The notes: a model not told the origin generated them from the sequence alone. A stretch of DNA of 64,000 nt from Candidatus Binatia bacterium (GCA_963666315.2 CAXXHG010000027.1:1-64000), one strand, 5' to 3'; shown: positions 12,685 to 62,755, counted from the first letter of the stretch. A program made the numbers and translations.

Positions 12685-12860
12685 CAGAACTCCTTCAGCT
12701 AGATTTTGTTGGTCAGACCATTGTCAATTTTAACGAGCAGAAGCTAGCGAACTCCAGGTGGGGACACTATTCTGAGTTCCATTTTCCCGCTTGGTCAAAT
12801 AAGGTGGCCCGGCAGACTCGAACTCGGCTTTTCCTCAGGAGCAAATATGGAGCAGATTGA

Positions 12861-14081: not shown

Positions 14082-14111
14082 ATTGGTCAACGTGAAGAAG
14101 GAGACAGCCCA

Positions 14112-14152
14112 GAGCAGTAAGCTTTGAGCAGTAAGCTTTGAGCAGTAAGCTT
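14112..14152 (+). repeat. 14-bp tandem repeat x3 (gagcagtaagcttt)
   Basis: Directly visible; third copy is 13 bp. Confidence 0.9.
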
Positions 14153-14174
14153 CACACAAACAAGGAGGGACGTT

Positions 14175-45047: not shown

Positions 45048-45824
45048 TTAGTGTTCCGTTTGTTCCGGCTGCGGCTGGGCCTGTTTGCTTCGGATGTCCT
45101 TGGCCCTGGCTGCCATCTCGCCGGCCTCAGCCCCGCGGTTGAGCTTCTGCAGCAGCGCAGCATACTTTTCAAGTAGGATGGCAACGGCAGGGTGATCAGC
45201 TCCCAACTTCTCTTCCCGGATTTGTAAGGCGCGCTGGAAAAGGGGATCCGCGTCTGTATTCTTACCTTGGGCAACCGCAAGCTCAGCCAGTCCACTCAGG
45301 CTGGTTGCGACCGCCGGGTGCGTCGACCCCAGCGCCCGCTGTCGGATGTCGAGAGAACGTTGGAAGAGAGATTCTGCTTCCTCATAACGTTCCTGGCCCA
45401 TATAGACGGCGGCTAAGTTATTCAGACAATTTGTGATTCGGTAATGATGGGGGCCGACCAGGGCTTCCGCAATTTTCAGCGCGCGTTGCAGAAAGGTTTC
45501 GGCCTCATCGTATTTCCCCAATTCCCGATACAGCGAGGCGAGATTATTGAGACTCTGCGCGACCCAGGGGTGGTGAGGACCATAGTGTTCCTCTCGGATA
45601 GACAGCGCACGCTGGTAGCACGCTGCCGCCTCATCTCGCTTGCCCTGATTGTGAGACAGGCTGCCTAAGTTGTTCAAGACAACGGCGACCCGAGAGTCTT
45701 TTGGGCCATATTTTTCCACCTCGAGGAGGGCAGCCCGGAGCCGTTGCTCGGCTTCGATATAGTGGCCGCTTTGGTACAGCCGTGCGCCTTCTGCGTTTGC
45801 CGCTGCCCACTGATTGTCACTCAT
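45048..45824 (-). CDS. Tetratricopeptide repeat protein (kinesin-light-chain type)
   Basis: Repeats GxxHPxVAxSLNNLAxLY. Confidence 0.92.
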   Translation of the reverse strand: MSDNQWAAANAEGARLYQSGHYIEAEQRLRAALLEVEKYGPKDSRVAVVLNNLGSLSHNQGKRDEAAACYQRALSIREEHYGPHHPWVAQSLNNLASLYRELGKYDEAETFLQRALKIAEALVGPHHYRITNCLNNLAAVYMGQERYEEAESLFQRSLDIRQRALGSTHPAVATSLSGLAELAVAQGKNTDADPLFQRALQIREEKLGADHPAVAILLEKYAALLQKLNRGAEAGEMAARAKDIRSKQAQPQPEQTEH

Positions 45825-45961
45825 AGCGCTCCCCTTTTTTCTCACCCAGGATGCTGCGAATGCCGCTCCTGTCGGTCACTCTATACAGACTGCGACGTTT
45901 GCGCATGTCGCTGGGCGCTTGCGACTATGGCCTGAGAAAGGAGAAGGCATGGAAGGGGAGA

Positions 45962-46084
45962 CTACGCTGTTAAAAGCATCTTCACGACGGGTAAGAGTCC
46001 AGCCCGCGGGTTGTAGTGCTCCCAGCGCGTACTGTCGCTGAGCCAGGTCTTGTACATCTTCTGCGGTGTGTTTGCTGCTCCCAT
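45962..46084 (-). pseudogene. 5' stub of a sulfotransferase-like gene
   Basis: GAGGAG RBS; MGAANTPQKMYKTWLSDSTRWEHYNPRAG, cut just before the expected PAPS-binding motif. Confidence 0.55.
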
Positions 46085-46379
46085 TCTGGCTCCTCTCCAG
46101 CTCAGTAGTGTTCGCTATAGCTATTCTCGGCACGTTCTACAAAGGAACGTAAACGGTTGCAATACGGCATACCTTGCGCTACCCCCAGAGCGATTCCACG
46201 TCCGTCCCTTGTCTTGTACAATGAGTGCCGCGATGCTACTTCGGGGACCGTGGTCCGCCCCGCGCACCGTTGGATGGCTACTGACTAACCGCCACTTCAA
46301 ATCTCAAACCAGAACAGGAGGAAGAAGCTTATGAGACCCATCACCTGTACTCTGATCGTCGGCATGGCCTGTGCCAGTA

Positions 46380-46566
46380 TTCCCAGCTCCATAATGACCG
46401 GACGTAAGCGCGCTTTCGTTTCGGTTTCCAATTGCAACACGACGGCCATCCTGCAGCGCTGCCCCGGATCGGCATAGAAGGCCAGCATACGATTGGCCAA
46501 GACTTCGCCACTGATCTCGCCCTGATACCATTCCATGACCCCTTGTTTGAATTCGTCCAGCGACAT
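46380..46566 (-). pseudogene. 5' stub of a ferritin-like hypothetical gene, joined to a convergent signal-peptide stub (46331-46380 +)
   Basis: YQGEISGE..LQLETETKARLRP; both stubs have AGGAGG RBS. Confidence 0.5.
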
Positions 46567-47000
46567 CGCGAGTCCCTCCTTATGGGATAAGAGCGTTCTC
46601 CGGCCCCGTACGTTTCGTTCCCCTTCTATCCGATGGTCTCAACAGGCGCTGTGATGGTCGAGCGTCTGCGGGCTCGGTCCGACTAGGTTGGGGTTGTTCT
46701 CGACCATCCACTCAAGAATCCCTTCCAGGATGCCAATCCGAAACTCATTCTCAATAATCTGTGTGGGGTCGATTGCACCGAATGTCTGATTCACAGTAGT
46801 GCTCCGCCGCTCGGGGTGATTTCAATGCTTGGCCGGGGGCGGCGAAGACGGCCCTTGCTTGACCGGCTGGTTACTTTTCCGCAAGCCGTAAGCGATCCTC
46901 AGGAAGTCGGCGATTTCCTGTGTCGCTCTGCTATCGTCCTGGCCTCCCTCCAGTTCCCGCCATTGGCGCGCTAAATCTTGGCGGATCTCTTCATCGCGTG

Positions 47001-47336
47001 TCAGGGTCTCGGCCCTCCCCACGCACGCCCATTGTCGGCCCCGTACTCGTACGGGCTACTTTTATCTACCGAGGTAATCAGCGGGTGGCGGAGGAGCCAG
47101 ACTAAGATGCGTTCTTGATTGGCCTCGTAGTCGTCCCGCCGTCCCAGTTCGACAACCCCGGACAAGGCGTGGTTCACAATGTGCCCTCGAAACATCAGTC
47201 CGTGGGGCTCCAGTACCTGTGCCCGAAACGCCGCCAGCAGTGTCGTTGTAGCGCGGTCCGTCAACGAGACCTCGAGGTACATGCCGAATGTCCGAAATTC
47301 TCTACAGCGTGTCTTCTTGCGGAGGCGGCGGCGCAT
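47001..47336 (-). CDS. YggL/DUF469-like protein
   Basis: MRRRLRKKTRCREFRTFG..FRAQVLEPHGLMFRG..WLLRHP. Confidence 0.65.
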   Translation of the reverse strand: MRRRLRKKTRCREFRTFGMYLEVSLTDRATTTLLAAFRAQVLEPHGLMFRGHIVNHALSGVVELGRRDDYEANQERILVWLLRHPLITSVDKSSPYEYGADNGRAWGGPRP

Positions 47337-47586
47337 CCGGGCAATGATAGGGGGGGGGTTTGTCGAGATTTCAACGCTTAGGCCGCGCCGTACTGGTGCA
47401 GGGCGAGCGACAACCCTACGGCCTCTTGAAGAGCAGTGGATCATGACAAACACCACTACGAAGAGGTATCGGCGTATCGGCAACGCGCTTAACCATGATC
47501 AGCTATAACATAGCGTGAAGCTAGCTACGAGCCCGTAGCATTGCAGGGGAATCGCCCATCGAGGAAGGGGAGATGGAGGAGAGAGC

Positions 47587-47829
47587 ATGGCGGCAAAACA
47601 CAGCTATGAGGCGCAGGTGTGGAAATATCTCAATACGGAGTTGTACTGGGTTGTGGTTGTCCAGGATGGAACGCGCCCGATTAAGCATTATCCTGGCTTG
47701 CACCCGAAGCCAAAGCAGCAGGAAGTGCAGCGTCTTTCGTATATACCCGGTGCTCCCACCTGGTGGGTCGATCGGGTCGGGGGCTCTCAGAAATATCAAT
47801 TGGATGCTGCGCACAAGTGGAGTGTATAG
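47587..47829 (+). CDS. Hypothetical protein
   Basis: GGAGGAG RBS, 80-aa ORF. Confidence 0.5.
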   Translation: MAAKHSYEAQVWKYLNTELYWVVVVQDGTRPIKHYPGLHPKPKQQEVQRLSYIPGAPTWWVDRVGGSQKYQLDAAHKWSV

Positions 47830-48132
47830 CGAGACCTGCACCACGTGGCTCACGGGCAAAGATCACACCTCTCCTGACCGCAAATGCGCGTCTATCGCGT
47901 ACTGGGAGCATCGCAATTCAGCGCCAGCAGGCCGCAATCTGGCCCACGAATTCCGTCAGATCCTGCAAACGCCGCACGTACTCACTCACTGGCCCGCGTT
48001 GCCGTTGACTGAGACGCAGGTCAAGCGCGTCCGGTGGTACTTGGTGGCGTACGCCGTCCGACATGCCCATGATCCCAAGGAGGCTTTTGAGTTTGCCGGC
48101 TGAACGCCGTATCGACGATGGCTGAGTTTTCA

Positions 48133-48748
48133 ATGACAGCAAAACGACAGCACTATAACCCACAATTCTACCTCCGCTATTTTCTACCTGCAGGCGAAAA
48201 GACGTTCTGGGTTTACGATAAAGAGGGCGGTGAACCTAGACGGCAAGCACCGCTCAATACTGGCATCATCGGGAATTTCTATACCGCCGAAACGCCTACG
48301 GGTGAACGAGTAGACCTGGAGAACGAGTCGCCAAGTCAATCTTGGACCGCTGGCAGGAACCCAGAGCTATTCCCGAGCCACATGAGACAGCGGAAGTTGC
48401 CTATTTTCTTGCACTTCTCCATACACGTGTCCCCAGAGCGCTTAGTACGGTGCAAGAACACGGCGTAGCATTGACACTGGCAAAGCTAGACCAGCTGAGG
48501 AGTGACCCTGAGCAAGTGAAGCGGGAGTTACAAAAGTTTGAGGATGAGACAGGGAAGGCACTAACAGAAGAAGAGTACCTTGAAGCGCTAGCGAATCCCT
48601 TTGAACATATTCAGATGCAATTCAACGAGAAAGTTGCTCTTGGTATTTCGTTGGGAACTACCGACGGACTTGCTGCTGAGCTGCTGAGCTTGAACTGGTG
48701 TTTATGTACGGCACCACATGACACCGTTTTTACCACCTGTGATGCGCG
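48133..48748 (+). pseudogene. DUF4238 family, frameshifted and 3'-truncated
   Basis: KRQHYNPQFYLRYF..FYT; second frame FLALLHTRVP..FTTCD, then junction. Confidence 0.75.
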
Positions 48749-48951
48749 GTTCGACCTCGGCCAGAGAAGGGGAAGCTTGGGCGAGGCAAGCGACCAAGGA
48801 GACAATACCCCAAACAGTCCCTAATCGGCGTTGCCACATAATTGGTCCTTTACCCATACGCGTCAGTCCCAGCGGCTTTCCTTTTACTTGTCACCAAGGG
48901 ATCGGTTTGTCCCCGCAATGTCTAGCCGTCATAACCAGAGGACTGCCGAGC

Positions 48952-49022
48952 TGTGTCTATTCACTAGGTTAAGAGCTCTCTGTGTGTCCTTAACAGTGTC
49001 CCGTCACTGTTCTACTTCAACA
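48952..49022 (+). repeat. Left att repeat (66/71 identical to 62284-62354), core TGTT-CTACTTC-AACA at 49008-49022
   Basis: Manual alignment. Confidence 0.9.
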
Positions 49023-49136
49023 CAAACCGTGAGTTTCGTAACCCCCCGAAAAGAGGCAACAAGCCTTGATTCCATAGGGGTTACGGGACATCGAGTTGTC
49101 CTCCCCATTCCTCTCCATTCCCCCCGAATCCCCGTG

Positions 49137-49160
49137 AAAGTCCCGCGAATTTTCACAACA
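49137..49160 (+). repeat. Arm-type repeat aaagtcccgcgaattttcacaaca
   Basis: Exact 24-bp copy at 62223-62246. Confidence 0.88.
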
Positions 49161-49331
49161 GGCAGGGGGCGGAAAATCGTGTGAGCCTGCCGCAACTACT
49201 CCCGCCGACCAACCACGAGGGTTGTAGCAAGGGGAAGGGTGTGAGAACCTGGCCCCAGCCTGCTCCACGACCGTCAGCGGAGCCTCATGCTCATCCGAAT
49301 ACCGACCCGGAGCGAACCCTAGCCTCGTTGC

Positions 49332-51260
49332 TTATAAACACGGAAGATTTGACGTTTCCATTCTCAGTGTTGCCCCAAGTTGCGCGGAAAACCCTGCCGC
49401 TAGCCGAGAGGTGTTGGATCGGAACGTAATTGCAGCCCCATTCGGAATCGTGGTGTTTGTCCCCGCCGTAATCGTGTGTTGCGCCTTGAGTATCTGAGTG
49501 CCGGTCAAGGATTGGTTAGAGAAGGAGAGATCGGCACGCGCGTTTATCTCTTCGAGCGTGGGCGCGGCAACGCCTGAACAATCGGTCGTTGCGTTCAGGG
49601 CGGCCAAGGCGTCCACCCTGCCGAATCCCGAAAGTGAATCGAACCCGCCTCCTTCAATATCTACTGCAGTCTTGGTTAGAACTTCGTACACTTGCGCCGG
49701 CGTGAAATGAGGATGAGCTTCAAGGAGCATGGCGGCTATAGCCGCAACATGCGGCGCTGCTGCTGATGTGCCACAGAATTTAGTAGGGAATGTACCGGGG
49801 CCAGTGTTCGTGACACAGTCAACTGCCGTCAGATCCGGCTTGGCGCGAGACACGAAAGAGGGATGGTGAATGTCGGAAGGGCCTCTGTTGCTAGAAGACT
49901 GGATAGTACCTGGCGTGGCTTGGTGTGCCGCTGCAACAGCGAAAACACCAGGGACTGCCGGGTGACCGAAGACGCTGCCTGCTGTTATGGTGTCCGCATT
50001 GTCCAACGCAGCGTTGGTGCCAAGAACAAATAGCTCGATAGTCTGATTGGTGAGTCCCGAAACCTTGCGGACTTGTAGAGAGCAGCCAGCAGAGCAGTTC
50101 TCCGAAAAACTCTCAATTAGATCGTCATTCCCATCTTGCCGCGTATTGAAACCTGCACAGGTTGCAGGGGATTCTTCAAATAAGCACAAGTCATAGTCGT
50201 CCGCTGACCCGCCGAACATATTGCTCCACTGTAAAACAACAGTGGCTGGGTTACCGGTAACGTTGAACATCGTATTGCCGACTCCAATCTGATGACTATG
50301 GACGCCGTCGAAACTGTCTAGGAACGTGGCTTCGTAATGCACCGAAGCCTGGTTGCCAGCGGATGATACGTAACTCGCGTCTCCGGCAATGGCAGCAGCA
50401 GCAGCTTGGGCAATCATCCCATCTTGGAAAAATGGTTCTCCAAAACATCCCAAGTCATCAACTATGATATCGGCTAGAAAGCCAGGGGAAGGCGCGGCTA
50501 GGACCTGTATGCAGTCGTCCATTGCTAGGCAAGTCGCAGGCCCGCAGAATGCCAGTTGTGCCCCGGGCGCGAGATCGTGGATGATTTCCAGCATCGCGGT
50601 CCCTTCATCACCGGATCCTGGATGAGCGTTAGCAATTGCGAATACCGGAAGGTCTCCCGTGGCCTGAGAGGCGGCTCGGGAATCCACACCATCTGATATG
50701 ACACCGACGCGAATACCGGAGCCATCTACTCCAAATTTATTGAACGCGGCGACCGCATTTAGAAGGATATCGCCTTCAGTCCTAACGCTACCTGTCATTG
50801 GTATTGGGTAATCGGGAGGCTGGACCTTGAGGATAAACTCAAAGTCCGCAATGATCTCGATGTAGTCGTATGGCACCCAGGCTTGAATGAGATTCCACTC
50901 CTCATTCACAATCTCAATCTCGACACCAACGGATTTAAGGATTTCCTGGATATCATCGTCAACGAAGTCAACTTTGAGATACACCTGCACCCGCGCTGCG
51001 TCGTCGACTTTCACCAATGAAGATGAGAAGCGCTCGGCTATACGCAACGTCGCTGCATTGGTAGACGTAGCGTTGGCCTCCTCCAGCGCCGAGCAGGTGC
51101 GGCGGAGAAGTGGACTAATTTTATGCTGGGCAGGCGTCAAATGTGCTTGTGATTTGTTGGGAATCCGCAGGACCGGCGAACTGGAATTCGGGTCTGACCT
51201 GACGGAGACTGAGGATACCGCTAACAGTATCAGGCCAAGGATGAGTGTGCGGCTACGCAT
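49332..51260 (-). CDS. Secreted S8 subtilisin-like peptidase (ED-S type) with C-terminal beta domain
   Basis: Signal peptide; VGVISDG, DEGTAMLEIIHDLAPGA, SSAGN, GTSAAAPHVA. Confidence 0.92.
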   Translation of the reverse strand: MRSRTLILGLILLAVSSVSVRSDPNSSSPVLRIPNKSQAHLTPAQHKISPLLRRTCSALEEANATSTNAATLRIAERFSSSLVKVDDAARVQVYLKVDFVDDDIQEILKSVGVEIEIVNEEWNLIQAWVPYDYIEIIADFEFILKVQPPDYPIPMTGSVRTEGDILLNAVAAFNKFGVDGSGIRVGVISDGVDSRAASQATGDLPVFAIANAHPGSGDEGTAMLEIIHDLAPGAQLAFCGPATCLAMDDCIQVLAAPSPGFLADIIVDDLGCFGEPFFQDGMIAQAAAAAIAGDASYVSSAGNQASVHYEATFLDSFDGVHSHQIGVGNTMFNVTGNPATVVLQWSNMFGGSADDYDLCLFEESPATCAGFNTRQDGNDDLIESFSENCSAGCSLQVRKVSGLTNQTIELFVLGTNAALDNADTITAGSVFGHPAVPGVFAVAAAHQATPGTIQSSSNRGPSDIHHPSFVSRAKPDLTAVDCVTNTGPGTFPTKFCGTSAAAPHVAAIAAMLLEAHPHFTPAQVYEVLTKTAVDIEGGGFDSLSGFGRVDALAALNATTDCSGVAAPTLEEINARADLSFSNQSLTGTQILKAQHTITAGTNTTIPNGAAITFRSNTSRLAAGFSAQLGATLRMETSNLPCL

Positions 51261-51272
51261 ACGTGTAGCGCC

Positions 51273-51683
51273 TTATTTTTCCTCACTCTTGTTGGTCGAA
51301 CATTCTTCTAAAGAATTTCCATTGTCCGCCAGGTTGTTCAGGCTCGTCGCCACAGCGGGATGGTCCGGCCCCAGCGCCTGCTCGTCTATTGCCAGCGCCC
51401 GCTTATAGAGCGGCTCGGCCAGCGCGTAGCGGCCTTGGTCAATGTAGAGCGAGGCTAGATTACTCAGGCTCACTTCCACATCGGCATGGTCTGGCCCGAC
51501 GTTTTTCTCGGCTATTTCAAGGGCTTTTTTGTCAACCGTGACGGCACGGCCATATTGGCCTGCACGATGCAGCTCCTGACCCTCCTGAATCAGGATGTCC
51601 CATTCAATGCCCGCCTCACCGGGCGAAACCGGCAGCGGCCACAACAGCAACAACACCGTGATGATAGTCGGGATATATTTCAT
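51273..51683 (-). pseudogene. Secreted TPR protein, 3'-truncated
   Basis: Signal peptide; two TPRs; breaks after GPDHPAVATSLNNLA. Confidence 0.75.
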
Positions 51684-52189
51684 TAATCCTTGAGCCTTCT
51701 GTGACGGCGCACACGAAGGATTATACCACCTGTGTGAACTGCACAAAACGCTAGAAAACCAACCCCACCGTAGACTATGCACCACCCTACGCCAATTGCT
51801 CAGAACAGCCGTGAGTGAGCAAATCACACGAGAGGAAGGTTTTGCTTCAAGTAAACTACATTGATATAAAGCGGTTGAGCATCCACATGCACGAGCAAGT
51901 TGTGTCAGGACGGAAAACTGACGGGTTTCAATCGTCTAACATTCTGTATGCTGATTAGGCATCTTGGGGATCATGTATGGCATCGAGAGGGGTATTGCAG
52001 CTTGTGAAGGTTGGCGCGAGACGTCTCATCACTTCCTTGGTAACCCGTTCCGGCCTGTCCCCGAGAAGACGTCGCAATCTGTACGACGCAAATTTCACCA
52101 GTGGAACAGCGGACTGAGCAATGCTTGGAAATTTTTCTACCTAAGCTCTTCAGCTTGCGGATGCAACAACAGTTGCGCTAGAAATCACT

Positions 52190-52627
52190 ATGCGCTGGTT
52201 TTTGATTGGACTGATCGCACTCCTACTCTCCGCCGGGGTACCAGCACTAGCAGACGATATTGCTGACCTGCGGGCCAGGGCCAACCAAGGCGATGCCACT
52301 GCCCAGTTCAATCTCGGTCTCATGTACGAGAGCGGCGAAGGCGTGGCGCAGGATTACACACAAGCATTCTTCTGGTACCGCAAGGCTGCCGACCAAGGCG
52401 ATGCCTCTGCCCAGTTGAATCTCGGTGTCATGTACGGCAGGGGCGCAGGCGTGGCGCAAAACTTCGTACAAGCGCATAAGTGGTGCAATATAGCCGCTGC
52501 TCATTTGACTGGAGCGAATCGCGGATTAGCGGTCAAAAGTAGAGATATTCTGGAAAGAAAGATGACGCAGGCTCAGGTCGCGGAGGCGCAAAAAATCGCG
52601 CAGGAATGGAAGCCCAAAACCGATTAA
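52190..52627 (+). CDS. Secreted Sel1-repeat protein
   Basis: AQFNLGLMY..GEGVAQDY..WYRKAADQG. Confidence 0.93.
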   Translation: MRWFLIGLIALLLSAGVPALADDIADLRARANQGDATAQFNLGLMYESGEGVAQDYTQAFFWYRKAADQGDASAQLNLGVMYGRGAGVAQNFVQAHKWCNIAAAHLTGANRGLAVKSRDILERKMTQAQVAEAQKIAQEWKPKTD

Positions 52628-52644
52628 TGACGAAGCATACAGGG

Positions 52645-53052
52645 TTAAGTTTTTCCTGCTATTAATTCGGTATCTGATGTCATATTGCCGCCGAAATATG
52701 GGCGATTGTCAAAGTTAACAAGGGTGTCCATGGAATCTGATGCGCCGTTGGTTAGAAGCGTTACAAGCCGATCAAAATCCACACCGGTACTTACGTCCAC
52801 GCTGCCGAGCTGGCCCAACGGTAGCGAGCGCTGAACCCAGAAGAAGTCTCCGGGGTGGAAAGAGGGGCCGCTAACTAGTGTGTCGATGACATTATGCCCC
52901 AAGTAATACGTAATTTCGGAGGGCACTGGGAAATCGTAATTGAAACAGCCGTCCCCTACAACATCGATGGGTATCGTCACTAGTAACTCCTGCCCCCAAA
53001 CCGGGGAAGACAGGGCGAAATTAAAAGCTAGTCCTATGAATAATGCACGCAT
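52645..53052 (-). CDS. Secreted hypothetical protein (probably truncated)
   Basis: MRALFIGLAFNFALSSPVWG signal peptide. Confidence 0.5.
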   Translation of the reverse strand: MRALFIGLAFNFALSSPVWGQELLVTIPIDVVGDGCFNYDFPVPSEITYYLGHNVIDTLVSGPSFHPGDFFWVQRSLPLGQLGSVDVSTGVDFDRLVTLLTNGASDSMDTLVNFDNRPYFGGNMTSDTELIAGKT

Positions 53053-53394
53053 GTTTTCCCTATACAGAAGGCGTTCTCTTGTTGTCAACGCTGTGCCTTT
53101 GTTGCATTATTTATTCTCCGCGGCGCGTTCATTCGCAACCCGTGCGCGGCGTGCTTGCGGTCGAATTACCAGGGGCCACATGGGAGTTCCTCCTCATCAT
53201 CTGTTTTCCCTTGCAGACGGCGAAAACGTTGCTATGACTAAAGTACCGGGAGAGTAAGGCTGTGTTATCCCTTGGCCTTCACCTCGCCCTATTCATTTGA
53301 ACCTTCCGGCATTTTCGGTCAACAAGCATGGACCAACAAGGACGTAGCATTCCGCCTTCCTTTTGCACTCTTTTTATTCTGTTCAACCAGTCGT

Positions 53395-54012
53395 TCACGT
53401 AAAGGAAATAGGTTTTTCTTGCGCTCTGCGTTTCTGCATATAATCCCGCATATATTTGCGGCGACTGTCCTTCCTGCCTATTTCGTTGGCAGCGACCGTG
53501 CAATCATGCGAACAATACTTCTGCCTGCGGATGGGGTGGAAGATCGTTCCACATCCCATCCGCGGGCACTCCTTGAAAGGGAACGGCTCGTCGTGTCGCT
53601 CCAGTAGATCGAGCAGGTCATGCACTAGATCGTGATTCACAAAGGTCCCTCCAGCACCGCGCTGAAGTACGCCGTTCTTCAACCTCATGACCCGGTCATC
53701 ATGTCGTCTCAGTTTTTTCATCGATAAAGCTTTTCCCGCCATGAGGTCTCTTACGATGCCTCGGATCCGCGCCTGACTAGCGTCAATCAGCTTCCATTGT
53801 ACGGGAAGCGGTTCCGACCCCCACGAGGGGATAACCCATTCGCGGCTGTCCCACATGACAGCGATCCCGACACCAAAGGTATCGTTATAATCCTCCACGA
53901 GAGCGTGTTTCTCGGAGCGCTTCAAGCGGGCAAGTGACGAGATGTTGACGAGACGCGCATAGAAGCGCAGCCGCTGTGTAGGGTCCTTATCCACCGGGAA
54001 TGGCATATGCAC
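53395..54012 (-). CDS. Putative regulator with C-terminal CGNR-like zinc finger
   Basis: CPRMGC..F..QKYCSHDC plus basic helix; divergent from xis. Confidence 0.65.
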   Translation of the reverse strand: MHMPFPVDKDPTQRLRFYARLVNISSLARLKRSEKHALVEDYNDTFGVGIAVMWDSREWVIPSWGSEPLPVQWKLIDASQARIRGIVRDLMAGKALSMKKLRRHDDRVMRLKNGVLQRGAGGTFVNHDLVHDLLDLLERHDEPFPFKECPRMGCGTIFHPIRRQKYCSHDCTVAANEIGRKDSRRKYMRDYMQKRRAQEKPISFT

Positions 54013-54043
54013 ACGTTAAACAAACTATCTGGCAGAAGCAAGC

Positions 54044-54069
54044 GTTATTATTTGTTAACAATTATTAAC
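54044..54069. promoter_or_regulatory. Imperfect 26-bp palindrome in the divergent promoter region
   Basis: gttattatTTGTTAACAAttattaac. Confidence 0.5.
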
Positions 54070-54132
54070 TTGATTTAGTTTATCCCACCATGTACTCAAT
54101 GACGCAAGGGACACAGAGAGTGAGGACTACCC

Positions 54133-54351
54133 ATGAAGAGCACCCCCGAGCGATTGGCCTACAGCGTTGACGAAGCAGCGATTGTAACCGGCAAAACCTC
54201 GAAAGCCATCCGCGTACTCATCTCGCGCAACCAATTTCCCCACCGGCGTCGCGGACGGTCCATCGTCATTTTGAGGTCAGATCTAGAAGAATTCCTGGCG
54301 GGATTGCCTGGCATTTCCGTTGCGGAAGCGCTCGACAGGATTGCGACGTGA
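54133..54351 (+). CDS. Excisionase-like HTH protein
   Basis: LAYSVDEAA..G..AIR..FPHRRRGRSIVILRSDL. Confidence 0.85.
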   Translation: MKSTPERLAYSVDEAAIVTGKTSKAIRVLISRNQFPHRRRGRSIVILRSDLEEFLAGLPGISVAEALDRIAT

Positions 54352-56729
54352 GCGTAACGATGCAAGACGTGGCCCTGGCTTATGCCGCGCGGGGCTTCCC
54401 GGTATTCCCACTTCTGCCTGGGGAGAAAAAGCCCCATGGCAACCTCGCTCCCCACGGCTTCAGAAATGCAACGACGGACCCTGCCGTTATTGAAGGTTGG
54501 TGGGCCAAAGAACCAAAAGCCAACATTGGCATCCCCACGGGGAATGTCAGCGGTTGGGTTGTGATCGATACCGACAAGGACGACTTGAAAAGTCTTGACG
54601 GTGAGGAGGCCCTGCGCGCTCTTGAAAAGGAGCACGGCGCCTTGCCTAAAACGGTCATGCAACTTACGCCACGCGGTGGGAATCACCGCGTATACCGGGA
54701 TCCTGGGGGCATTCGGTGCAGCGCGGGTAAACTCGGCCCCGGCGTCGACGTCCGGGGCACGGCTGGCTATGTCGCTGTCGATCCGAGCACTAGGCCTGAT
54801 GGTTCTTATGAATGGGAACTGGATCATCATCCCGATGAACTCGAGCCTGCTGAACTACCCGATAAATGGATTGAGCTCCTGCGTGATCAGGATTCAAGCA
54901 AGGCGAAGAGCGGGGATAAATCCAAGCCGGAATCCGCCGCCGGCGGGCCGATCCCAGAAGGAAGGCGCAATGACACTCTCGCCAGCATTGGCGGTTCCCT
55001 GCGACGTATGGGGCACGATGAGGAGGAAATTCTTACCACCCTCCAAGAAGTAAATAGCAGCCGCTGCGAACCTCTCTTGCCTGATCCCGAAGTAGCAAAA
55101 ATAGCGCATAGTATGGCGCAATACGAACCCGGAGCGGGCGCGATTACCGAAGCCACCGCTTCGGACCTACGCGAGAACATCGACGTATTTCTGGCTCAGG
55201 CAAAGGAAACGCAGGACCCAGGTCACGCCTTTCAGGCGATAGAACATCTAGTGCAATTATCTGCTGCGGACTATGCCAGCTACACGGCCAAATTCAAAGA
55301 GATTTTAGGCAGTAAGTTGAATCTCAACGATTTTGCCCGCGCATTCAAGGATGCCAAGAAAGAGGCCGCGCCTGACCGGAAGAATCTCGTTATCCGTCTC
55401 GCTGAGCACATTCTCGAAAAGCAGCATTTCGCCAAGAACGAAGGCCAACAGCTGTATCATTTTGAGGCCGGGCATTATGTTCGGGATGGCGATATTGCCA
55501 TCCAGCGCTTGGTAAAAGAAAGCCTCACTGACTGGGGGGAAATCGATAGTTGGTCGTCATTTCGTGGCCGGGAAGTATTCAACTATATCCTCACTGGAGC
55601 GCAGCAGTTATGGACGCACCGCCCGCCTGACGAAATCCCCGTGTTGGACGGGATCCTGAACCTGCGTACCATAACGCTCCGTCCCCATGACCCGGCCTTT
55701 CTGTCCCCCATTCAATTTCCAGTGATATTTGATCCTGATGCAAGGTGTGAAAAGATCGATAAATTCTTTGAAGAAGTATTTCCAAAGGGCGCAGCAGATC
55801 TCGGCTACGAGATGATTACGGCCATCATTGACCCAGCGTTCGATGACCAGAAGGCTGACCTATTGAGCGGTCCAGGCGGGAGCGGTAAATCCACCTTTTT
55901 GACTCTTGTCATAAATTTCATCGGCATAGAAAACGTGTCCACCTTGTCACTCCATACACTCGAAAACAACCGTTTTGCGATATCCGAGCTGTATGGAAAG
56001 GTCGCCAATATCTGCGCAGATCTACCCGGCACACGGTTGTCCCATACCTCAAACGTCAAAAGCATAACCGGCGGCGACACTGTCCAAGCCGAGATAAAAA
56101 ATGGACGGTTCTTTTCCTTTCGCCCGTATGCACGACTTTTGTTCGCAACGAATCATTTACCCCGAGCAGATGACGCGGACGAGGCGTTCTACCAGTGACT
56201 GCACGTTATTCCTTTTGATAATGTTTTTCGCGGTGTGAAGGGTAAGGAAATCAAGCGAAATAAGCTGGACGCCATGCTTTCAGACCCTACACAATTATCC
56301 GGGCTACTAAACAGAGTCTTGGAAGTTCTGCCAGGATTACGTTCGGACGGATTCGTGGCGTGTCAATTGACGAAAGACGCCTCAGCGGATTTCCGGGTTG
56401 AGACCGACCCGATTAGCATCTGGATGGACAAAAAAACCGTTCAAACGCCGAACGGCTGGGTTCCGAAAGAGGTTCTTCTGCAAGCTTACAACCGGGATGC
56501 CGTAGCCGCTCATCGCCCGCGGGAGACCGCGAATAACTTTGGTCGAGCTGTCACGAGATTTCGGCCTGCTGTCACGGGAAAGCAACGCCGCGTGAATGAA
56601 CAACGAGTGTGGGTGTGGCAGGGAATTGGTCTCGGTACGCCGGAATCTGACCAATCGGCCCCTCATAAGGAGGAGTGTCACGGGAATCTGGATCACTGTC
56701 ACGAGAAAGCTTCTAGCAAAGCAACGTAA
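54348..56729 (+). pseudogene. Bifunctional primase-polymerase/PriCT-1/D5-P4 SF3 helicase, in-frame TGA at 56196-56198
   Basis: NIGIPTG..IDTD, TPRGGNH, EGRRN, GPGGSGKST, KSITGGD, FATNHLP; frame continues AFYQ*LHVIPF. Confidence 0.9.
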
Positions 56730-56892
56730 ATAGATCTGACTTTGTAGGTACTTAGAGCGGGTGTCACGGGAATCACTAAAAAAATCGTATACCCGCGAAT
56801 AAAAAAGGGACCTTAGGTTGGGAAAAACGAGAGGTAGGGGGGGGGTGTTAGTTTGAGAGTGACTGAAAATAATCCAGTGATTCCCGTGACAC
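56549..56892. other. Putative replication origin with TGTCACG(G/A)GA iterons
   Basis: Direct copies at 56549, 56570, 56676, 56697, 56762; 17-bp inverted pair 56761-56777 / 56876-56892. Confidence 0.75.
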
Positions 56893-56935
56893 CGCTTACT
56901 ATTTCGGCCTGCCTCAAGAAAAAACCGAGGTTGGT

Positions 56936-57337
56936 ATGGACGCAGATGCGTTGATTGCCCGCTGTGATGACCTTGGCGTAACGCTGAGCCCGTTGCCTTC
57001 TGGCATGCTCAGGGTTCGATGCAACGGTGAAATCTCAGAATCTCTTCGCTCAGCGCTGAGAGACAACAAAGCTGAAGTGCTGGCCATCCTTGCAGCTATG
57101 GAATGGTTGAAGCCTCGACTCGCAGAGCCTCAACGGATTGCTGACTTAATTTCCGAATGGTGCGGCGGCACGTGTGTCCTTGGCCGCGACGGCGTCGAAC
57201 GCTGGGAGGGGGGAAGAGACGGGACAAATAGCCACGATATTGACGCGTTGTTGGCCGCTCGTTGGCAGCTTAATGTCTACGCGTACTGGGCGGATGACTG
57301 CTCCTGGTGGGCGATGCCCGAAGAATGGGAACAGTAA
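56936..57337 (+). CDS. TubC N-terminal docking-domain-related small protein
   Basis: LIARCDDLGVTL..LRVR..LRSALRDNKAEVLAIL. Confidence 0.7.
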   Translation: MDADALIARCDDLGVTLSPLPSGMLRVRCNGEISESLRSALRDNKAEVLAILAAMEWLKPRLAEPQRIADLISEWCGGTCVLGRDGVERWEGGRDGTNSHDIDALLAARWQLNVYAYWADDCSWWAMPEEWEQ

Positions 57338-57348
57338 GGAGGTAACCA

Positions 57349-57837
57349 ATGGATCGCACATTGAAAAAGATCACACTGAAAGCTCGCACGCCAAAGGAGA
57401 GAAAGAACGTCTATCGGTATCCCTTTGGCGTCAGGAAGAGACGTCTGCGGATACCCACAGACGAGGAATATCGGGCCTATGATGGCGCGCACTGCCATCG
57501 TTTATGGGAATCCCTTTCGGAGAGCTGGCGTTGTCCTGGCTGCCTCAGATCAAAGCGTGAAATCATGCGCTGGACCAAGAGAAAGGCGCGCCCTGACCTG
57601 GGCATTACTGAGGATTACTTTGGCTGGATGGCCGGATTACACCGATATCAGTTTACCGGACCTGTGCTCTGCGATCACTGCAATATCGCCGGCGGATCGG
57701 CAAAGCGAAAACTTGATCTGCCGGAAAACTTTTTCTTTTCACCCGCCGACATCAGACGTTTTGTGAAACCAAAACCGCACCGAGGTCATACAATCGAAAT
57801 AGAACTAGCACTCCATATATATCAGTCTTCGCGGTAA
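57349..57837 (+). CDS. Cys-rich protein, possible degenerate HNH-like nuclease
   Basis: WRCPGC..LCDHCN; AGGAGG RBS; lies just before cos-like motif and terS. Confidence 0.55.
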   Translation: MDRTLKKITLKARTPKERKNVYRYPFGVRKRRLRIPTDEEYRAYDGAHCHRLWESLSESWRCPGCLRSKREIMRWTKRKARPDLGITEDYFGWMAGLHRYQFTGPVLCDHCNIAGGSAKRKLDLPENFFFSPADIRRFVKPKPHRGHTIEIELALHIYQSSR

Positions 57838-57974
57838 ACGATTCTCATGGCTTCGCGGGGCCAAAGGGGACCGGGCGATCCGCCTTCTGTTGTACACCTC
57901 CACCAGCGCCGAGGATGCAACGCTGTGAAGCGGAATAGGAGATTACGATGCGATTGTGAGCCGGACAGCCACCA

Positions 57975-58050
57975 AGCGGGGGAGGGGTCAATCTCTACCG
58001 CCTCATGACTGTGTACCGCGCCCCTTAGGTCAACGTTTGTGCAGGCTTCC
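57975..58050 (+). other. cos-like packaging motif
   Basis: gggggaggggtcaatctcta..gtaccgcgcccc, resembling motifs upstream of P27/HK97-type terS. Confidence 0.55.
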
Positions 58051-58079
58051 CCCGATCAAATGGAAAAAGAGGACGAACA

Positions 58080-58330
58080 ATGAGTGAGAAACCACGACTA
58101 CCACCGGCGCACCTCAGAGCGGACACCCGCGAATGGTGGACTTCTGTTCTTGACGAATTCGAACTCGAAGAACATCACATCAAACTCCTCACCTTGGCCT
58201 GTGAGGCCTGGGACCGCTGCCAACAGGCGCGGCAAGTCCTGCGAGAGCACGGTCTGACTTACGATGATCGATTCTCGCAACCCAGAAATAGGCCAGAAGT
58301 AACGGTCGAACGGGATTCACGACTGGCTTC
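58080..58330 (+). pseudogene. P27-family terminase small subunit, 3'-truncated
   Basis: PPAHL..WW..V..FEL..LLTLACEAWDRCQQAR..G..DRF.QP..RPEV..ERDSR. Confidence 0.8.
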
Positions 58331-58642
58331 GGCCCAGAGACTGATGAGGAGCTTCAGGCAGGCTGGTTTTTGGTGCGGGATACACTCCTCCCGGCCTACA
58401 TCGCAAGCCGGCCTGGTGAACGGCCCTGGGCGTGGTGGGAATTCCAAGCTCCTGAGCCGCGCCGCAGCGTGCCGCCTCCGCCTGAACAGCCGGGTCGGAA
58501 GCCCATGCCTTTGATGCTGGCCAGCTACCGTGAATCTTCCCTGGAGTATTTGACCCGGCTCGACCTGCTGTCTGCCGCAGAAAAACGCGCCCTTGCGGAA
58601 AGGGAATGCGCGTCATACGGCTCAAACGAGTTGCGGGCTTGA
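58325..58642 (+). pseudogene. 5'-truncated satellite hypothetical gene (RPWAWW motif)
   Basis: GFGPETDEELQAGW..RPGERPWAWWEFQAPEPRR..ESSLEYLTRLDLLS. Confidence 0.55.
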
Positions 58643-59045
58643 TCTTCCATGGGGCACCGTCCTTTCACGGAGTACGCACCCACCATGATTGCACACTTTT
58701 TGTGTGTAGGGGGGAGAAGACGCACAACCGACCGGTGCTGGCTCTCACTGACTGTTTTCTCTTGTGTATGGATCCAGGACCCTGGTAAGGAGAGCGTATG
58801 CCTCCCGTCATAGCGGCCCGTGCGATCGCCGTGGCACTGGCGGTTGGCCCTCGAAGAGGAGTGGCAGAAGGTCGATCATTGCCGGATCTTAATGGGCGAC
58901 GAGGTTTCACTATGTACGAAGAAGGCTTTTCAGCGCGGGTTGTCGAAAGTGGAGGACGTTGGGACGATCCCTTCGCGTCAGACACGGCGGCTGCCTGTCA
59001 GGGAAAGAAGCGCCCACCCGACCGCAAGAGAATGGTATCCCCCAC

Positions 59046-60897
59046 GTGACCCTACTCCCGAAGAACATTCTTATCCTCGCCGCCGCCCTGTTGCTCGGCG
59101 CGCGTCCCGCAAGCGCGCAACAGGTCCAGGTGCTGGAGCACGACACGGCCGAAGGGGAATACAACTCGTTGGTGCAGGTCGATGCCGACACCTACGCCCT
59201 TGCCTACTCTGGCGCCGACAGCGACGGGTTCCTCAAGACCTTCACCATCAGCGCGGACGGCATGACCATCACCCAGGTCCAGGTGCTGGAGCACGACACG
59301 GCCGAAGGGAAACACAACTCGTTGGTGCAGGTCGATGCCGACACCTACGCCCTTGCCTACTCCGGCGCCGACAACAACGGGTTCCTCAAGACCTTCACTA
59401 TCAGTGCGGACGGCATGACCATCACCCAGGTCCAGGTGCTCGAGCACGACACGGCCATCGGGAAACGCAACTCGTTGGTGCGGGTCGATGCCGACACCTA
59501 CGCCCTTGCCTACTCCGGCGCCGACAACAACGGGTTCCTCAAGACCTTCACTATCAGTGCGGACGGGATGACCATCACCCAGGTCCAGGTGCTCGAGCAC
59601 GACACGAGCCTTGGGCAGGCCAACTCGCTGGTGCAGGTCGATGCCGACACCTACGCCCTCGCCTACAGGGGCGCCAACGACGCCGGGTTCCTCAAGACCT
59701 TCACCATCAGCGCGGACGGCATGACCATCACCCAGGTCCAGGTGCTCGAGCACGACGCGGCCCTAGGGGCCGACAACTCGCTGGTGCAGGTCGATGCCGA
59801 CACCTACGCCCTCGCCTACTCTGGCGCCGGCTCCGACGGGTTCCTCAAGACCTTCACCATCACCGCTGACTGTCCGCCCGATCTCGTGCTCTCCAACCAA
59901 ACGATGAGCGGGACGCAGGTCTTTAGATCCGCGAGCACGATGACGTTCGGGCCGAATATGACCGTCCCGAGCGGGACCGCGCTCACACTGCGATCGAGGA
60001 CAATTCGTTTGGAGGCGGGGGTTTCCATACAGTTGGGGGCAACGTTCACGGCTAACACGGACCCGGACCCCTGTGGGACTGAAGTGGACGAAGTGCTCGC
60101 GAAGGACCGGGTGCGTGTCTTTGCGGCAGGCGCCGCGGGGGAGGACGAGGGCGAAGGAGGATCGAATCTGAGGATGGGAGCGGGTGTCTATGCTACCGCT
60201 GCGACGGGGGGCAGAAGCCGGCAGCGCAACAAAGGCGGCGACGAGCAGCTGCTCGTCGCCGCCCACACCTTCTTACTCATCGACGAGGACTCCATCGACC
60301 ACGCCACGCCGCCAAACTTCTTCTCGGAGTTGGACGTGAATGCGGACATGGCCGAGATCGGGTTACGCGAACGGCTCCTGTTCTTCGCCGACCACCCGGG
60401 GGCAGTCCTCACCCTCCCTACGGGCGAAGTGGGGGATGAAGGCTGGTTCGCGCTGAAGACGGTCCCCGCCTCGTGGGCCGCCGTGGGGCGGACGGGCGAG
60501 GGGCTGCGCAATTACCTCAACGCCGATCCCGGCCTCGGCACCCCCGACCGCCACGGGAACCCGGAGGCGCTGCTGGCGCAGATCCCCGATGTCACGCCGC
60601 TGCGCGCGTCCGGCCTGCGGCTATTGACGGGGAAACAGGTCTGCGCCGTGGTCTATGACCAGGATGTCCAGGTGACCTATGCGCCCTTAACGGGCAGCCT
60701 CCAGGGCGCGACGCTCGGGATTGTGGCCTTTGAGATCCTGGCCGTGACCGAATCGACAGCCTCTGCCCCAGCCGCCCTCCCGCAGGTCGAAATCCAACTG
60801 TTGGATGCCGATCGATTGTGCGCCGAAGGAGCTGGCGCTGTTCCTCGATGCCCCGGAACCGTTCTCGTCCTCCGCACCCTTCGATGTCGTGCCATAA
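59046..60897 (+). CDS. Secreted 5-repeat (beta-propeller-like) protein plus shared beta domain plus unknown domain; frameshift near 60830
   Basis: Signal peptide ..RPASA; 51-aa repeats; likely true end LALFLDAPEPFSSSAPFDVVP* in shifted frame. Confidence 0.7.
59121..59870 (+). repeat. 153-bp coding tandem repeat x5
   Basis: Units start 59121, 59274, 59427, 59580, 59733. Confidence 0.95.
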
Positions 60898-60899
60898 CG

Positions 60900-60958
60900 G
60901 CGGTCGCGCCTATGTGGCAAATTTGGCTGCCGACACAGTGTCGGTGATCGACACGGCC
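60900..60958 (+). pseudogene. Single YVTN beta-propeller repeat stub
   Basis: GRAYVANLAADTVSVIDTA. Confidence 0.6.
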
Positions 60959-61204
60959 ATGGTGTCAGGTGGATCCTGACCGTAATTATTGAGGGGTATC
61001 GCCGGGCCCACTGAGACAGCCTCTAAAAGACGACGCCCGAAAATCAAAGCGAAAACATGTCCTGGACTCACTGTAGTCACGACAGAGCACGATGCGGCAC
61101 AATCAGGGATAACAAACAGATCATCCCCGCCCAAATGATTTCTGCCAGGAAAATCTCTTAAGGCCAAACAGCGGGGCTACGGACAGGTGGGGGGGATAAC
61201 TCTT

Positions 61205-62299
61205 ATGTCGATCTATAAACGCAAGGATTCTTGGTATTACGATTTTCAGCATCAAGGCGAACGGTACACCGGCTCCATCGGGCATGTTTCAAAGACTGTG
61301 GCGAAGGAGGAATTTGCCCGTAAGAAGGCCGAAGTGATCGAAGGCCGGCTGAACCCCAACCGTGCAAGAAAGAGTCCCACCTTCCGCCAATTTGCGGCGG
61401 ACTACTTAGACTGGGCACGGACGAACAAGAAGCCGACGACGGTGCTGAGGAACCAGATGGCTATTAACGCCTTGCTGCCAGTACTGGGGGCAAAGAAGCT
61501 CAACGCGATAACCGCCTGGGCTATTGAACAGTTCAAAAAGGCACGGCGGGAAGCAGGAACGCAGCCGGGAACTATCAACACAGACCTGGCAACTTTGAAA
61601 GCCATGTTCCGCAAAGCTCGCGAATGGGGCAAGATGACCGCCACGCCTGAGGCCGGAGTCAAGAAACTACCAAGCCCGGAACCTCGGACCCGCTTTCTGT
61701 CTGAGGAAGAAGAAGCGCTGCTGTTGCCTGCATGTACGCCTGCGCTACGGCGCATCGTCAAGGCAGGCATCTTGTCCGGGTTGCGCAGGATCGAGTTGGT
61801 GAGCTTGCGGCCAGAGGACGTTGATCTAGAACGCAAGACTTTGCGCGTAGATTCCGCATTCAGTAAGAGTGGCAAAGGCCGGACACTCCCTCTCGGCCCA
61901 CGATTGCAAGCGGTACTTGAAGAAGCGTTATCCGTCCGTGGAGAAGCCCTCGTGGTCTTTGTGACTCAGATGGGAGTGGCGTGGACCGCAAGTGGCTTCA
62001 CGGCCTGGTTGCAGCGCGCCGGTAAGGGTGTGGTTAAGAATGTAGGCCCGCATGTCCTTCGACATACTTTCGCCAGCCGCCTGGTTATGAGCGGCGTTGA
62101 TATCCGCACCGTGCAGGAACTACTGGGACATGCTGATATAAACATGACCATGAGGTATGCTCACCTGTCCCCAGACCACAAAAGAGGGGCAATGGAAGCA
62201 ATGGAACGCCAGTTTTCAGGAAAAAGTCCCGCGAATTTTCACAACACCCCTTCTGAGAGCAGTTCGGGTAAGATCGAGAAAGTTGTGTCTATTCACTAG
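61205..62299 (+). CDS. int: Tyrosine recombinase/integrase
   Basis: N-terminal arm-binding-like WYYDF; GLRRIEL, SKSG, HVLRHTFA, LGH, RYAH catalytic residues intact. Confidence 0.95.
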   Translation: MSIYKRKDSWYYDFQHQGERYTGSIGHVSKTVAKEEFARKKAEVIEGRLNPNRARKSPTFRQFAADYLDWARTNKKPTTVLRNQMAINALLPVLGAKKLNAITAWAIEQFKKARREAGTQPGTINTDLATLKAMFRKAREWGKMTATPEAGVKKLPSPEPRTRFLSEEEEALLLPACTPALRRIVKAGILSGLRRIELVSLRPEDVDLERKTLRVDSAFSKSGKGRTLPLGPRLQAVLEEALSVRGEALVVFVTQMGVAWTASGFTAWLQRAGKGVVKNVGPHVLRHTFASRLVMSGVDIRTVQELLGHADINMTMRYAHLSPDHKRGAMEAMERQFSGKSPANFHNTPSESSSGKIEKVVSIH

Positions 62300-62354
62300 G
62301 TTAAGAGCTTTCTATGCGTCCTTAACAGTGTCCCGTCATTGTTCAACTTCAACA
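62284..62354 (+). repeat. Right att repeat, core TGTT-CAACTTC-AACA at 62340-62354
   Basis: Matches 48952-49022; arm repeat at 62223-62246 lies inside the int 3' end. Confidence 0.9.
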
Positions 62355-62755
62355 AACCCTGCCTTTTTATAAAAGTCCTGGGCGTTGAGGGTCGCATCCA
62401 GACAAACATCTCGATGTGAGCCTACTCGGGCTTTCTTGATTCCGTATGCGAGCAACCGGGAACCGACTCCTTGCTGAGCGTTTTCAGGAGCGACAAATAC
62501 GGCACGGATTTCTCCAGGTACAGCATGTCCAAAGCCGACGATTTGCGGGCCGGCCTCAGCGACAAATATTTCGCCTCGATCAATACCTTCAATACCTGGG
62601 AGATGGCCTTGAGGACAGCGGTTCTTGAGCCAGCCGGAAATTTGTTCGGGCGAGTAGTGGTCTTTGCACAGCGCTCTGACCGATTGCGTGTGGAGCGCAT
62701 GTATCCGACTGGCATCGCCGGTCGTTGCCGGCCGGATTGTGCATGGTTTTGTCAT
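62336..62755 (-). CDS. GNAT acetyltransferase (YafP-like), C-terminus coincides with att core
   Basis: IRPAT..VFVAP..QGVGSRLL..ATLNAQDFYKKAGF. Confidence 0.85.
   Translation of the reverse strand: MTKPCTIRPATTGDASRIHALHTQSVRALCKDHYSPEQISGWLKNRCPQGHLPGIEGIDRGEIFVAEAGPQIVGFGHAVPGEIRAVFVAPENAQQGVGSRLLAYGIKKARVGSHRDVCLDATLNAQDFYKKAGFVEVEQ

Follow-up and report, generated by a model that had tools for sequence, protein, structure and literature searches.

A probable phage-satellite-type element in Candidatus Binatia, decayed in the window copy, with a free-standing TerL N-terminal domain and relatives in several phyla

Introduction

Most of the phage satellites characterised so far come from Proteobacteria, Firmicutes and Actinobacteria, and the factors known to hijack packaging include Ppi of the Staphylococcus aureus pathogenicity islands (SaPI), Rpp from phage-inducible chromosomal islands (PICI) and Sid of P4. 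In mycobacteria, phiRv1 and phiRv2 are integrative elements of ~10 kb in which an integrase and a primase are combined with a small number of HK97-type genes for head or packaging functions, with no full virion set. The present analysis concerns a 13.4-kb element at positions 48949-62354 of a 64,000-nt stretch of DNA from a Candidatus Binatia bacterium (GCA_963666315.2 CAXXHG010000027.1:1-64000; the window hereafter denotes this whole stretch). The element is likely to be an integrated phage-satellite-type element that is PICI-like in function; it belongs to a lineage in which a small terminase gene (terS) is followed by a free-standing homologue of the N-terminal domain of the large terminase subunit (TerL), and the copy in the window has decayed.

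In the parts of the SatelliteFinder paper that define the families by gene content (PMC10085698), PICI show a median length of 9.5 kb and five core components, and Type B lacks the capsid-morphogenesis gene. The same parts class phiRv1/phiRv2-type elements as PICI, and describe capsid-forming PICI (cf-PICI) by terL and head-tail adaptor and connector genes, with portal as a marker. The elements termed EPIPs, found in Mycolicibacterium, are satellites of ~11 kb for which terS and genes for the major capsid and tape-measure proteins are reported (preprint PMC12822802); a serine integrase and head-tail adaptor and stopper genes are reported as well, and a replication module is unmentioned in that description.

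A small element with packaging genes and no virion genes

The element is bracketed by direct repeats of 74 nt (48949-49022 and 62281-62354) that are 92% identical and lie 13332 nt apart. An earlier sequence-only reading, which had proposed a cos-type satellite at 48952..62354, thus placed the bounds correctly. Profile searches with Pfam, PHROGs and NCBIfam assign the genes and give the order attL, cargo, CGNR-like regulator, excisionase (xis), primase-helicase, iterons, HNH-like gene, terS, RPWAWW gene, cargo, integrase (int) and attR, in which att denotes the attachment sites formed by the two repeats.

Virion genes are missing from this order. Within the element, Pfam and PHROGs match no family of TerL, portal, capsid, protease or tail proteins, and tail, holin, portal and head-tail connector genes give no match in Pfam, PHROGs or NCBIfam. 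When 22 open reading frames (ORFs) from the loci of relatives (8 capsid, 2 prohead-protease-bearing, 1 portal and 11 of unknown family) are compared with the window by tblastn, the best match has E=0.048 and no head-gene remnant is found; two TerL queries have no window match at E<=1e-3. The proposed satellite-type architecture, lacking terL, portal, capsid and tail genes, is accordingly borne out by Pfam, PHROGs, NCBIfam and tblastn. Families of relaxases, oriT-type sequences and conjugation are also unmatched in Pfam, PHROGs and NCBIfam.

The RPWAWW gene as a free TerL N-terminal domain

The gene downstream of terS belongs to a family with the signature PGxRPWAWW and has no Pfam, PHROG or NCBIfam family; its profile has 0 matches among PDB sequences, and a full-text literature search for 'RPWAWW' found no paper. 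An exhaustive phmmer search with it returns 586 representative proteins at E<=1e-3. Among the best 150 of these, 148 are free-standing proteins of 78-274 aa that contain the complete domain, including an N-terminal MPR motif, and the other two (P0028 and P0128) are fusions in which the domain precedes TerL_ATPase and TerL_nuclease. Two genomic loci, L001 (ORF 883-3237) and L037 (ORF 9688-11871), likewise hold the domain and TerL in a single ORF, which brings the fusions to four cases overall. Because the fused forms carry the whole family signature (MPRxxRR at the N-terminus, PGxRPWAWW and YLxRLxLL), the RPWAWW gene is, by homology, a free-standing counterpart of the first ~125 aa in a TerL subfamily. 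The ratio of nonsynonymous to synonymous substitution rates (dN/dS), rough since dS is saturated, is 0.16-0.25 in four pairs of free-standing RPWAWW ORFs and 0.36 in the pair with the TerL-fused L037. RPWAWW genes are, on this rough evidence, under purifying selection.

A cross-phylum lineage of related elements

A pattern scan of GTDB genomes yields at least 46 RPWAWW loci (L001-L046). Directly upstream of the RPWAWW gene, terS is present in 32 of the 46 loci listed (31 by tblastn and L038 by Pfam), and TerL is present in two of the 46 (L001 and L037). The replicases further upstream vary among relatives and include D5_N/DUF5906, DnaB_C, AAA_25, Prim-Pol and DUF3987; L006 carries a true HNH gene upstream. 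The hosts belong to Planctomycetota, Acidobacteriota, Desulfobacterota, Binatia and others.

Downstream of RPWAWW, 207 ORFs from 34 loci were scanned with Pfam, with the 17 ORFs of L030, L031 and L033 left out. An HK97 capsid gene occurs in eight of these 34 loci, one of which has TerL too, a prohead protease in two and a portal in one; L017 carries a tape-measure gene, and eight loci have an integrase no more than 6 kb away. The sequence-only reading had held that terL, portal and capsid genes in relatives at the 58.3-58.7 kb position would speak against it and point to a deleted prophage or a cf-PICI. This objection applies in part, as capsid lies downstream of RPWAWW in 8 of 34 loci and TerL in L001 and L037. 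Relatives with defined ends, described next, lack TerL and portal.

Direct repeats of 18-69 nt, at a spacing of 8.6-10.3 kb, flank eight of the nine loci checked for them, and in seven of these eight bounded relatives the repeats overlap a tRNA gene. Neither TerL nor portal is matched in any of the eight (Pfam, PHROGs), and a capsid gene is present in five (L006, L013, L024, L026 and L038), fused to a protease in L024. The integrase lies at the distal end, directed into att, in six of the eight. The same placement in the window, where int points into attR, had been taken as an oddity and is instead the usual layout. The window element has the features of the lineage: it is small and repeat-bounded, it carries an integrase, a replicase and a P27-family terS with RPWAWW directly after it (joined here by a deletion), and it lacks TerL and portal. 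On this comparison a satellite-type cross-phylum lineage exists, apparently unnamed, with members of 8.6-10.3 kb that mostly integrate at tRNA genes.

Several loci have individual features of their own. L013 has the order terS, RPWAWW, capsid, tape-measure-like gene and int; its tape-measure-like gene (12041-14353) and that of L017 (8224-11037) lie in or beside small terS-RPWAWW elements with no other tail genes. L026 is flanked by two complete tRNA-His genes (3132-3205 and 12769-12844) contained in a 52-nt exact repeat. In L018, a PrimPol-terS-RPWAWW element has a Cas3 gene (1092-3794) ~300 nt away on its integrase side.

Five loci of Terriglobia and Bryobacteraceae (L019, L021, L030, L031 and L033) have an RPWAWW gene with no upstream terS detectable by tblastn. 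In L019 and L021, where the surrounding families were scanned, the gene adjoins genes for an FGE-sulfatase, a sigma-54 activator and a histidine kinase, and the ORF sizes around it in L030, L031 and L033 match those surroundings. Since pairwise dN/dS among L019, L021 and L031 is roughly 0.16-0.25, these orphan RPWAWW copies may be retained by the host.

Decay of the window copy

The sequence-only reading took the element to be intact, and overlooked damage to its core genes. The primase-helicase ORF stops at a TGA at 56196-56198, beyond which the same frame runs on to 56729. This codon aligns with an arginine that is conserved in the helicase part of the primases of four relatives. Since TGA ends nine of the 26 called genes, it serves as an ordinary stop here, and recoding of TGA was rejected on the same count.

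The 162-aa Cys-rich ORF upstream of terS had been called HNH-like. Of its 14 homologues, 12 keep the His-Me finger motif HHDH...CDQCN. The catalytic segment is missing from the window copy: the HHDH segment is deleted in this ORF and in the homologue P0158, and is degenerate in P0157. Compared with GenBank phages, the protein has a single weak match in an unannotated Klebsiella phage, and its profile finds chance-level rubredoxin matches only among PDB sequences (E>=0.11).

The third lesion joins terS and RPWAWW. Residues 29-80 of the window TerS match positions 18-70 of the 98 in Pfam Terminase_4 (26.6 bits against a cut-off of 24.7), and residues 8-81 match positions 2-79 of the 116 in TIGR01558 (35 bits, under the cut-off of 45.6); tblastn against GenBank phages gives no match. 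The last third, which is the conserved C-terminus of relatives, is absent. The profile matches end at residues 80-81, and RPWAWW homology begins there (nt ~58322) in another frame, lacking the N-terminal third of the domain that the 78%-identical P0002 keeps. The first common in-frame start of the window RPWAWW ORF is a TTG at 58370, and P0001, which is 88% identical, starts at the same point of the domain as the window copy. The simplest reading is that a deletion of ~150 nt joined both genes out of frame. A programmed frameshift was rejected, as the two are separate adjacent genes in relatives and the window lacks parts of both.

The primase nonsense codon, the HNH motif deletion and the deletion at the terS/RPWAWW junction imply loss of function in replication and packaging. 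The int, xis and regulator ORFs are still full-length, as are the secreted-type cargo genes (S8 peptidase, TPR, Sel1 and repeat protein). With three broken core genes, the copy in the window has most likely been immobilised and persists as a cargo-laden relic, capable at best of excision.

Alternative explanations

Several observations weigh against the reading of a decayed satellite-type element. Neither a helper phage nor an excised circle or a packaged form has been observed, so that the term satellite rests on gene content and comparison. The tape-measure gene after RPWAWW in L017 and the full head modules in L001 and L037 indicate that some relatives are phages or their remnants, and the repeats of three relatives are short (18-23 nt) and possibly due to chance, yet each lies at a tRNA gene or an int end. 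The RPWAWW protein has no tblastn match in GenBank phages, and in the best 25 of 2516 phage records that match the TerL of P0028 the alignments start at residues 113-147; no cultured helper type is therefore known. As the gene is a TerL fragment, repeated truncation of TerL could in principle have given rise to the lineage, and the saturated dS leaves dN/dS as a rough guide to selection on it. For the damage itself, low-level readthrough of the primase TGA could occur, and the TerS tail faintly resembles the conserved C-terminus in a forced alignment, which makes the extent of the truncation inexact.

One alternative holds that the element is an intact, currently mobile cos-type satellite, in which the TGA is tolerated or read through, the odd-tailed TerS works and RPWAWW starts at the TTG at 58370. 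The full-length int, xis and regulator ORFs, the long att repeats and the shared starting point of P0001 would fit such an element, and the degenerate HNH site common to the homologues P0157 and P0158 means that the lineage persisted past that change. It is nevertheless improbable, given that the TGA falls on a conserved arginine in the helicase part and is an ordinary stop, that TerS lacks its conserved C-terminal segment and falls under the NCBIfam cut-off, that RPWAWW lacks the third that P0002 retains, and that no cos site is identifiable. The cos-type label of the sequence-only reading is thus unconfirmed: nothing distinctive is present in 57838-58079, between the HNH-like gene and terS, and no repeat or palindrome marks a site in 57800-58100.

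The deletions in the window copy, together with the homology of RPWAWW to the TerL N-terminus, also invite the view that the element is the remnant of an HK97-type prophage whose TerL was cut to an N-terminal stub, whose head and tail genes were lost and into which unrelated cargo was inserted. L001 and L037, in which terS and a fused RPWAWW-TerL are followed by protease and capsid or by a portal, speak for this view, as does the tape-measure gene of L017. Against it stand eight relatives in several phyla that are discrete, repeat-bounded at 8.6-10.3 kb and alike in gene order with no TerL or portal. The domain is also complete and free-standing, with its MPR motif, in 148 of the best 150 matches, and dN/dS is roughly 0.2. 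The window holds no structural-gene remnant, and its P4-type primase, xis and divergent regulator form a satellite-style module of replication and control, so that a prophage origin of this kind is considered unlikely. Still less plausible, to the point of being very unlikely, is a non-viral integrative genomic island that is immobile or was moved by conjugation and holds phage-like genes incidentally. Cargo does make up nearly half of the element, and its secreted proteins of the TPR, Sel1 and S8 types resemble products of host-lineage genes, with a TPR paralogue outside the element; but no relaxase, oriT-type or conjugation family is matched in Pfam, PHROGs or NCBIfam, and the order HNH-terS-RPWAWW, in common with packaging modules, is kept in 32 of the 46 loci listed. 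A decayed satellite-type element remains the preferred explanation.

Proposed mode of action and significance

Members of the lineage would depend on a helper phage. In intact members, the integrase and xis would excise the element, the primase-helicase would replicate it from the iterons and the element's own TerS would mark its DNA. The free TerL N-terminal domain would act on the helper terminase, either as a decoy for the helper TerS or as an adaptor to the helper TerL, and a helper of the HK97/P27/HNH type would then package the element. Docking of TerS by the free domain, or redirection of the helper terminase, is suggested by the fusion to TerL and the constant adjacency of terS. That these elements form an unnamed cross-phylum satellite family, in which a TerS-docking TerL domain encoded beside the element's own TerS diverts the helper terminase as decoy or adaptor, is put forward as a tentative proposal that is possible and far from assured. 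Under this proposal, the range from members with no structural gene to those with capsid only or with capsid and tape-measure would point to a stepwise process, in which genes were either lost from HK97-type helpers or acquired from them. If the domain does hijack the terminase, the interference mechanism would be new and directly testable, unlike those of Ppi, Rpp and Sid.

Through this element, the window of an uncultured organism is connected with dozens of similar small elements whose hosts are Planctomycetota, Acidobacteriota, Desulfobacterota, Binatia and other groups. It also provides a sequence marker for them, namely a P27-family terS and, after it, a free TerL N-terminal domain of the 'PGxRPWAWW' type. 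Its interest lies in this lineage and in the TerL-domain gene, and less in the decayed copy. The window copy represents an end state in which mobility genes decay as the ORFs of secreted-protein cargo stay full-length; decaying satellites could thus seed host genomes with genes for surface or host-interaction proteins.

Attachment sites, control region and cargo

The features of the element are collected in Table 1. The chromosomal target had been read as a protein gene, and this is supported by the overlap of attR with the last 19 nt of a GNAT gene that is convergent with int. The right end of attL encodes VEVEQ* as does the GNAT 3' end, through two synonymous differences, which fits insertion at the 3' end of the gene with that end restored. 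A tRNA scan and an Rfam scan of the window give no match, which excludes an RNA gene as the att site. A 24-nt exact repeat, with two copies in the window against 0.00 expected, has one copy in the 3' end of int and the other 115 nt inside attL; in the circular form the pair would flank the att core in the manner of arm-type sites.

Table 1. Coordinates of the element's features and of its chromosomal target in the window
Feature	Position	Strand	Evidence or remark
attL, left 74-nt repeat copy	48949..49022	.	92% match to 62281-62354
24-nt exact repeat, candidate integrase arm-type site	49137..49160	+	second copy 62223-62246
Cargo, S8-family peptidase, hydrophobic N-terminus	49332..51260	-	Pfam Peptidase_S8 E=2.1e-15, residues 414-547 only
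Cargo, TPR_12/TPR_10 protein	51273..51827	-	Pfam
Cargo, Sel1-repeat protein, hydrophobic N-terminus	52190..52627	+	Pfam Sel1 E=5.6e-22
Cargo, 147-aa protein, family-less	52645..53088	-	no Pfam, PHROGs, NCBIfam or PADLOC match
CGNR/ABATE-like Cys-rich 205-aa protein, regulator slot	53395..54012	-	divergent from xis; no Pfam match
Palindrome, candidate operator	54044..54069	.	in divergent intergenic region, regulator/xis
Excisionase/AlpA-type HTH_17 protein (xis)	54133..54351	+	HTH_17 E=5.6e-9; phrog_66 'excisionase and transcriptional regulator'; TIGR01764
PrimPol-PriCT_1-D5_N-DUF5906 primase-helicase	54348..56729	+	in-frame TGA 56196-56198; Pfam, PHROGs, NCBIfam (TIGR01613)
Iteron cluster, candidate replication origin	56570..56891	.	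TGTCACGRGAA x5
133-aa ORF	56936..57337	+	TubC_N only, E=0.0017, 18.8 bits vs cut-off 26
HNH/His-Me-finger-like 162-aa Cys-rich ORF, lacking the catalytic HHDH segment	57349..57837	+	alignment with 14 homologues
P27-family terS (Terminase_4)	58080..58514	+	homology to ~codon 81 (nt ~58320), then out of frame
RPWAWW gene, 5'-truncated homologue of the TerL N-terminal domain	58322..58642	+	lacks the family's N-terminal MPRxxRR..LLxG part
Cargo, 662-aa repeat protein, hydrophobic N-terminal segment	58959..60947	+	5 x 153-nt tandem units (5 x 51 aa)
Tyrosine integrase, intact 370-aa ORF, 3' end within attR	61187..62299	+	Phage_integrase E=1.8e-30; phrog_1 E=7e-74
attR, right 74-nt repeat copy	62281..62354	.	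covers int stop codon, 36-nt spacer and final 19 nt of GNAT gene
GNAT acetyltransferase, chromosomal target (3' end)	62336..62755	-	Pfam Acetyltransf_7 and Acetyltransf_10

In the control region, the regulator slot holds a Cys-rich protein with just three close homologues found. The homologue P0154 (87% identical) has zf-CGNR/ABATE clusters as structural look-alikes in the Atlas (TM up to 0.57). The earlier designation as CGNR-like is retained as a lead through these look-alikes, though the protein itself matches no Pfam family. The palindrome between the regulator and xis may act as an operator. An origin of replication had also been proposed and is supported by TGTCACGRGAA, which has five copies (four direct and one inverted) in 56570-56891 against 0.07 expected window-wide; an 18-nt perfect inverted pair lies within the same region. 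The neighbouring 133-aa ORF, described earlier as TubC-like, does match TubC_N, but below the cut-off, and is not conserved among relatives. Promoter-like and terminator-like sites are no commoner than in shuffled sequence.

The cargo comprises five genes in two blocks that encode putatively secreted proteins, with signal peptides judged by eye from the translations. The S8, TPR and Sel1 labels given to it earlier are matched by Pfam, but 'YVTN stub' and 'propeller' have no family match; the 662-aa repeat protein has no convincing match in Pfam, PHROGs or NCBIfam. The cargo had been described as other than defence genes, in agreement with PADLOC, which matched no defence family and gave only generic subtilase and sub-threshold PtuA matches. 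GC content is 0.64-0.65 across the repeat protein against 0.50-0.59 in the remaining element.

The C-terminal 65 aa of the S8 peptidase (49335-49532) share 51% identity with the repeat protein over its residues 308-372 (59880-60074; E ~2e-14), so that this family-less domain occurs in both cargo blocks, one at each end of the element. A TPR_12/TPR_10 paralogue outside the element (45048-45845) shares 42-51% identity with the TPR cargo when the repeats are compared one by one, and a cargo-type gene is thus also present in the host chromosome.

The rest of the window outside the element consists of ordinary metabolic genes, with no prophage elsewhere in the 64 kb. A DUF4238 gene lies in two overlapping frames at 48118-48824, 125 nt outside attL, and in relative L009 two DUF4238 ORFs (4011-4929) lie side by side next to the replicase-terS-RPWAWW module; the gene near attL may be an associated accessory gene or the trace of an older neighbouring element. 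Between the TPR gene and DUF4238 (45900-48100), the window has short overlapping ORFs only, with a weak YggL_50S_bp match as the sole family, and may be degraded sequence.

Comparison with known systems

Against P4-like satellites, the sole common item is the P4-family primase C-terminal domain (TIGR01613); for the psu-delta-sid operon and epsilon, Pfam, PHROGs and NCBIfam gave only generic matches across the core and unassigned ORFs of the element, with no P4-gene-specific profile run. The likeness to cf-PICI is that HK97-type packaging genes (HNH and terS) stand beside an int/alpA/primase module and some relatives encode their own capsid. However, the cf-PICI traits terL, adaptor or connector, and portal are absent from the window and from the eight bounded relatives, and no member of the set terL, portal, capsid, protease and head-tail adaptor or connector is found in the window by Pfam, PHROGs or tblastn. 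EPIPs, compared here by their description, have an odd combination of genes to which those of L013 and L017 are similar, whereas the window has none of their structural genes. The phiRv-type elements, likened by their general gene content, resemble the capsid-bearing relatives L006, L013, L024, L026 and L038, and differ from the window copy, which has no capsid or protease gene.

The nearest counterpart is PICI Type B, a placement that is functional, made from the gene list in the relevant parts of the SatelliteFinder paper, with the present element known from its genes alone. By that list, the likeness extends to the size class, to the integrase and AlpA/xis-type regulator, in domain content to a primase-replicase and a terS (the one cut by the TGA, the other short of its last third), to accessory genes at the ends and to the absence of tail, holin and portal genes. 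The window element is distinct from Type A in having no capsid-morphogenesis gene (Pfam, PHROGs), and from PICI in general in its extra gene for a free TerL N-terminal domain and its CGNR-like regulator. The hosts of the relatives differ as well, the SatelliteFinder text never mentioning Planctomycetes or Acidobacteria. Because the gene set by function, its damaged primase and terS included, amounts to four of the five PICI core components listed in those parts (Type B), the earlier description as an undescribed family holds at the level of the lineage only. Judged by analogy, PICI Type B and phiRv-like elements appear to be the nearest functional counterparts of the lineage.

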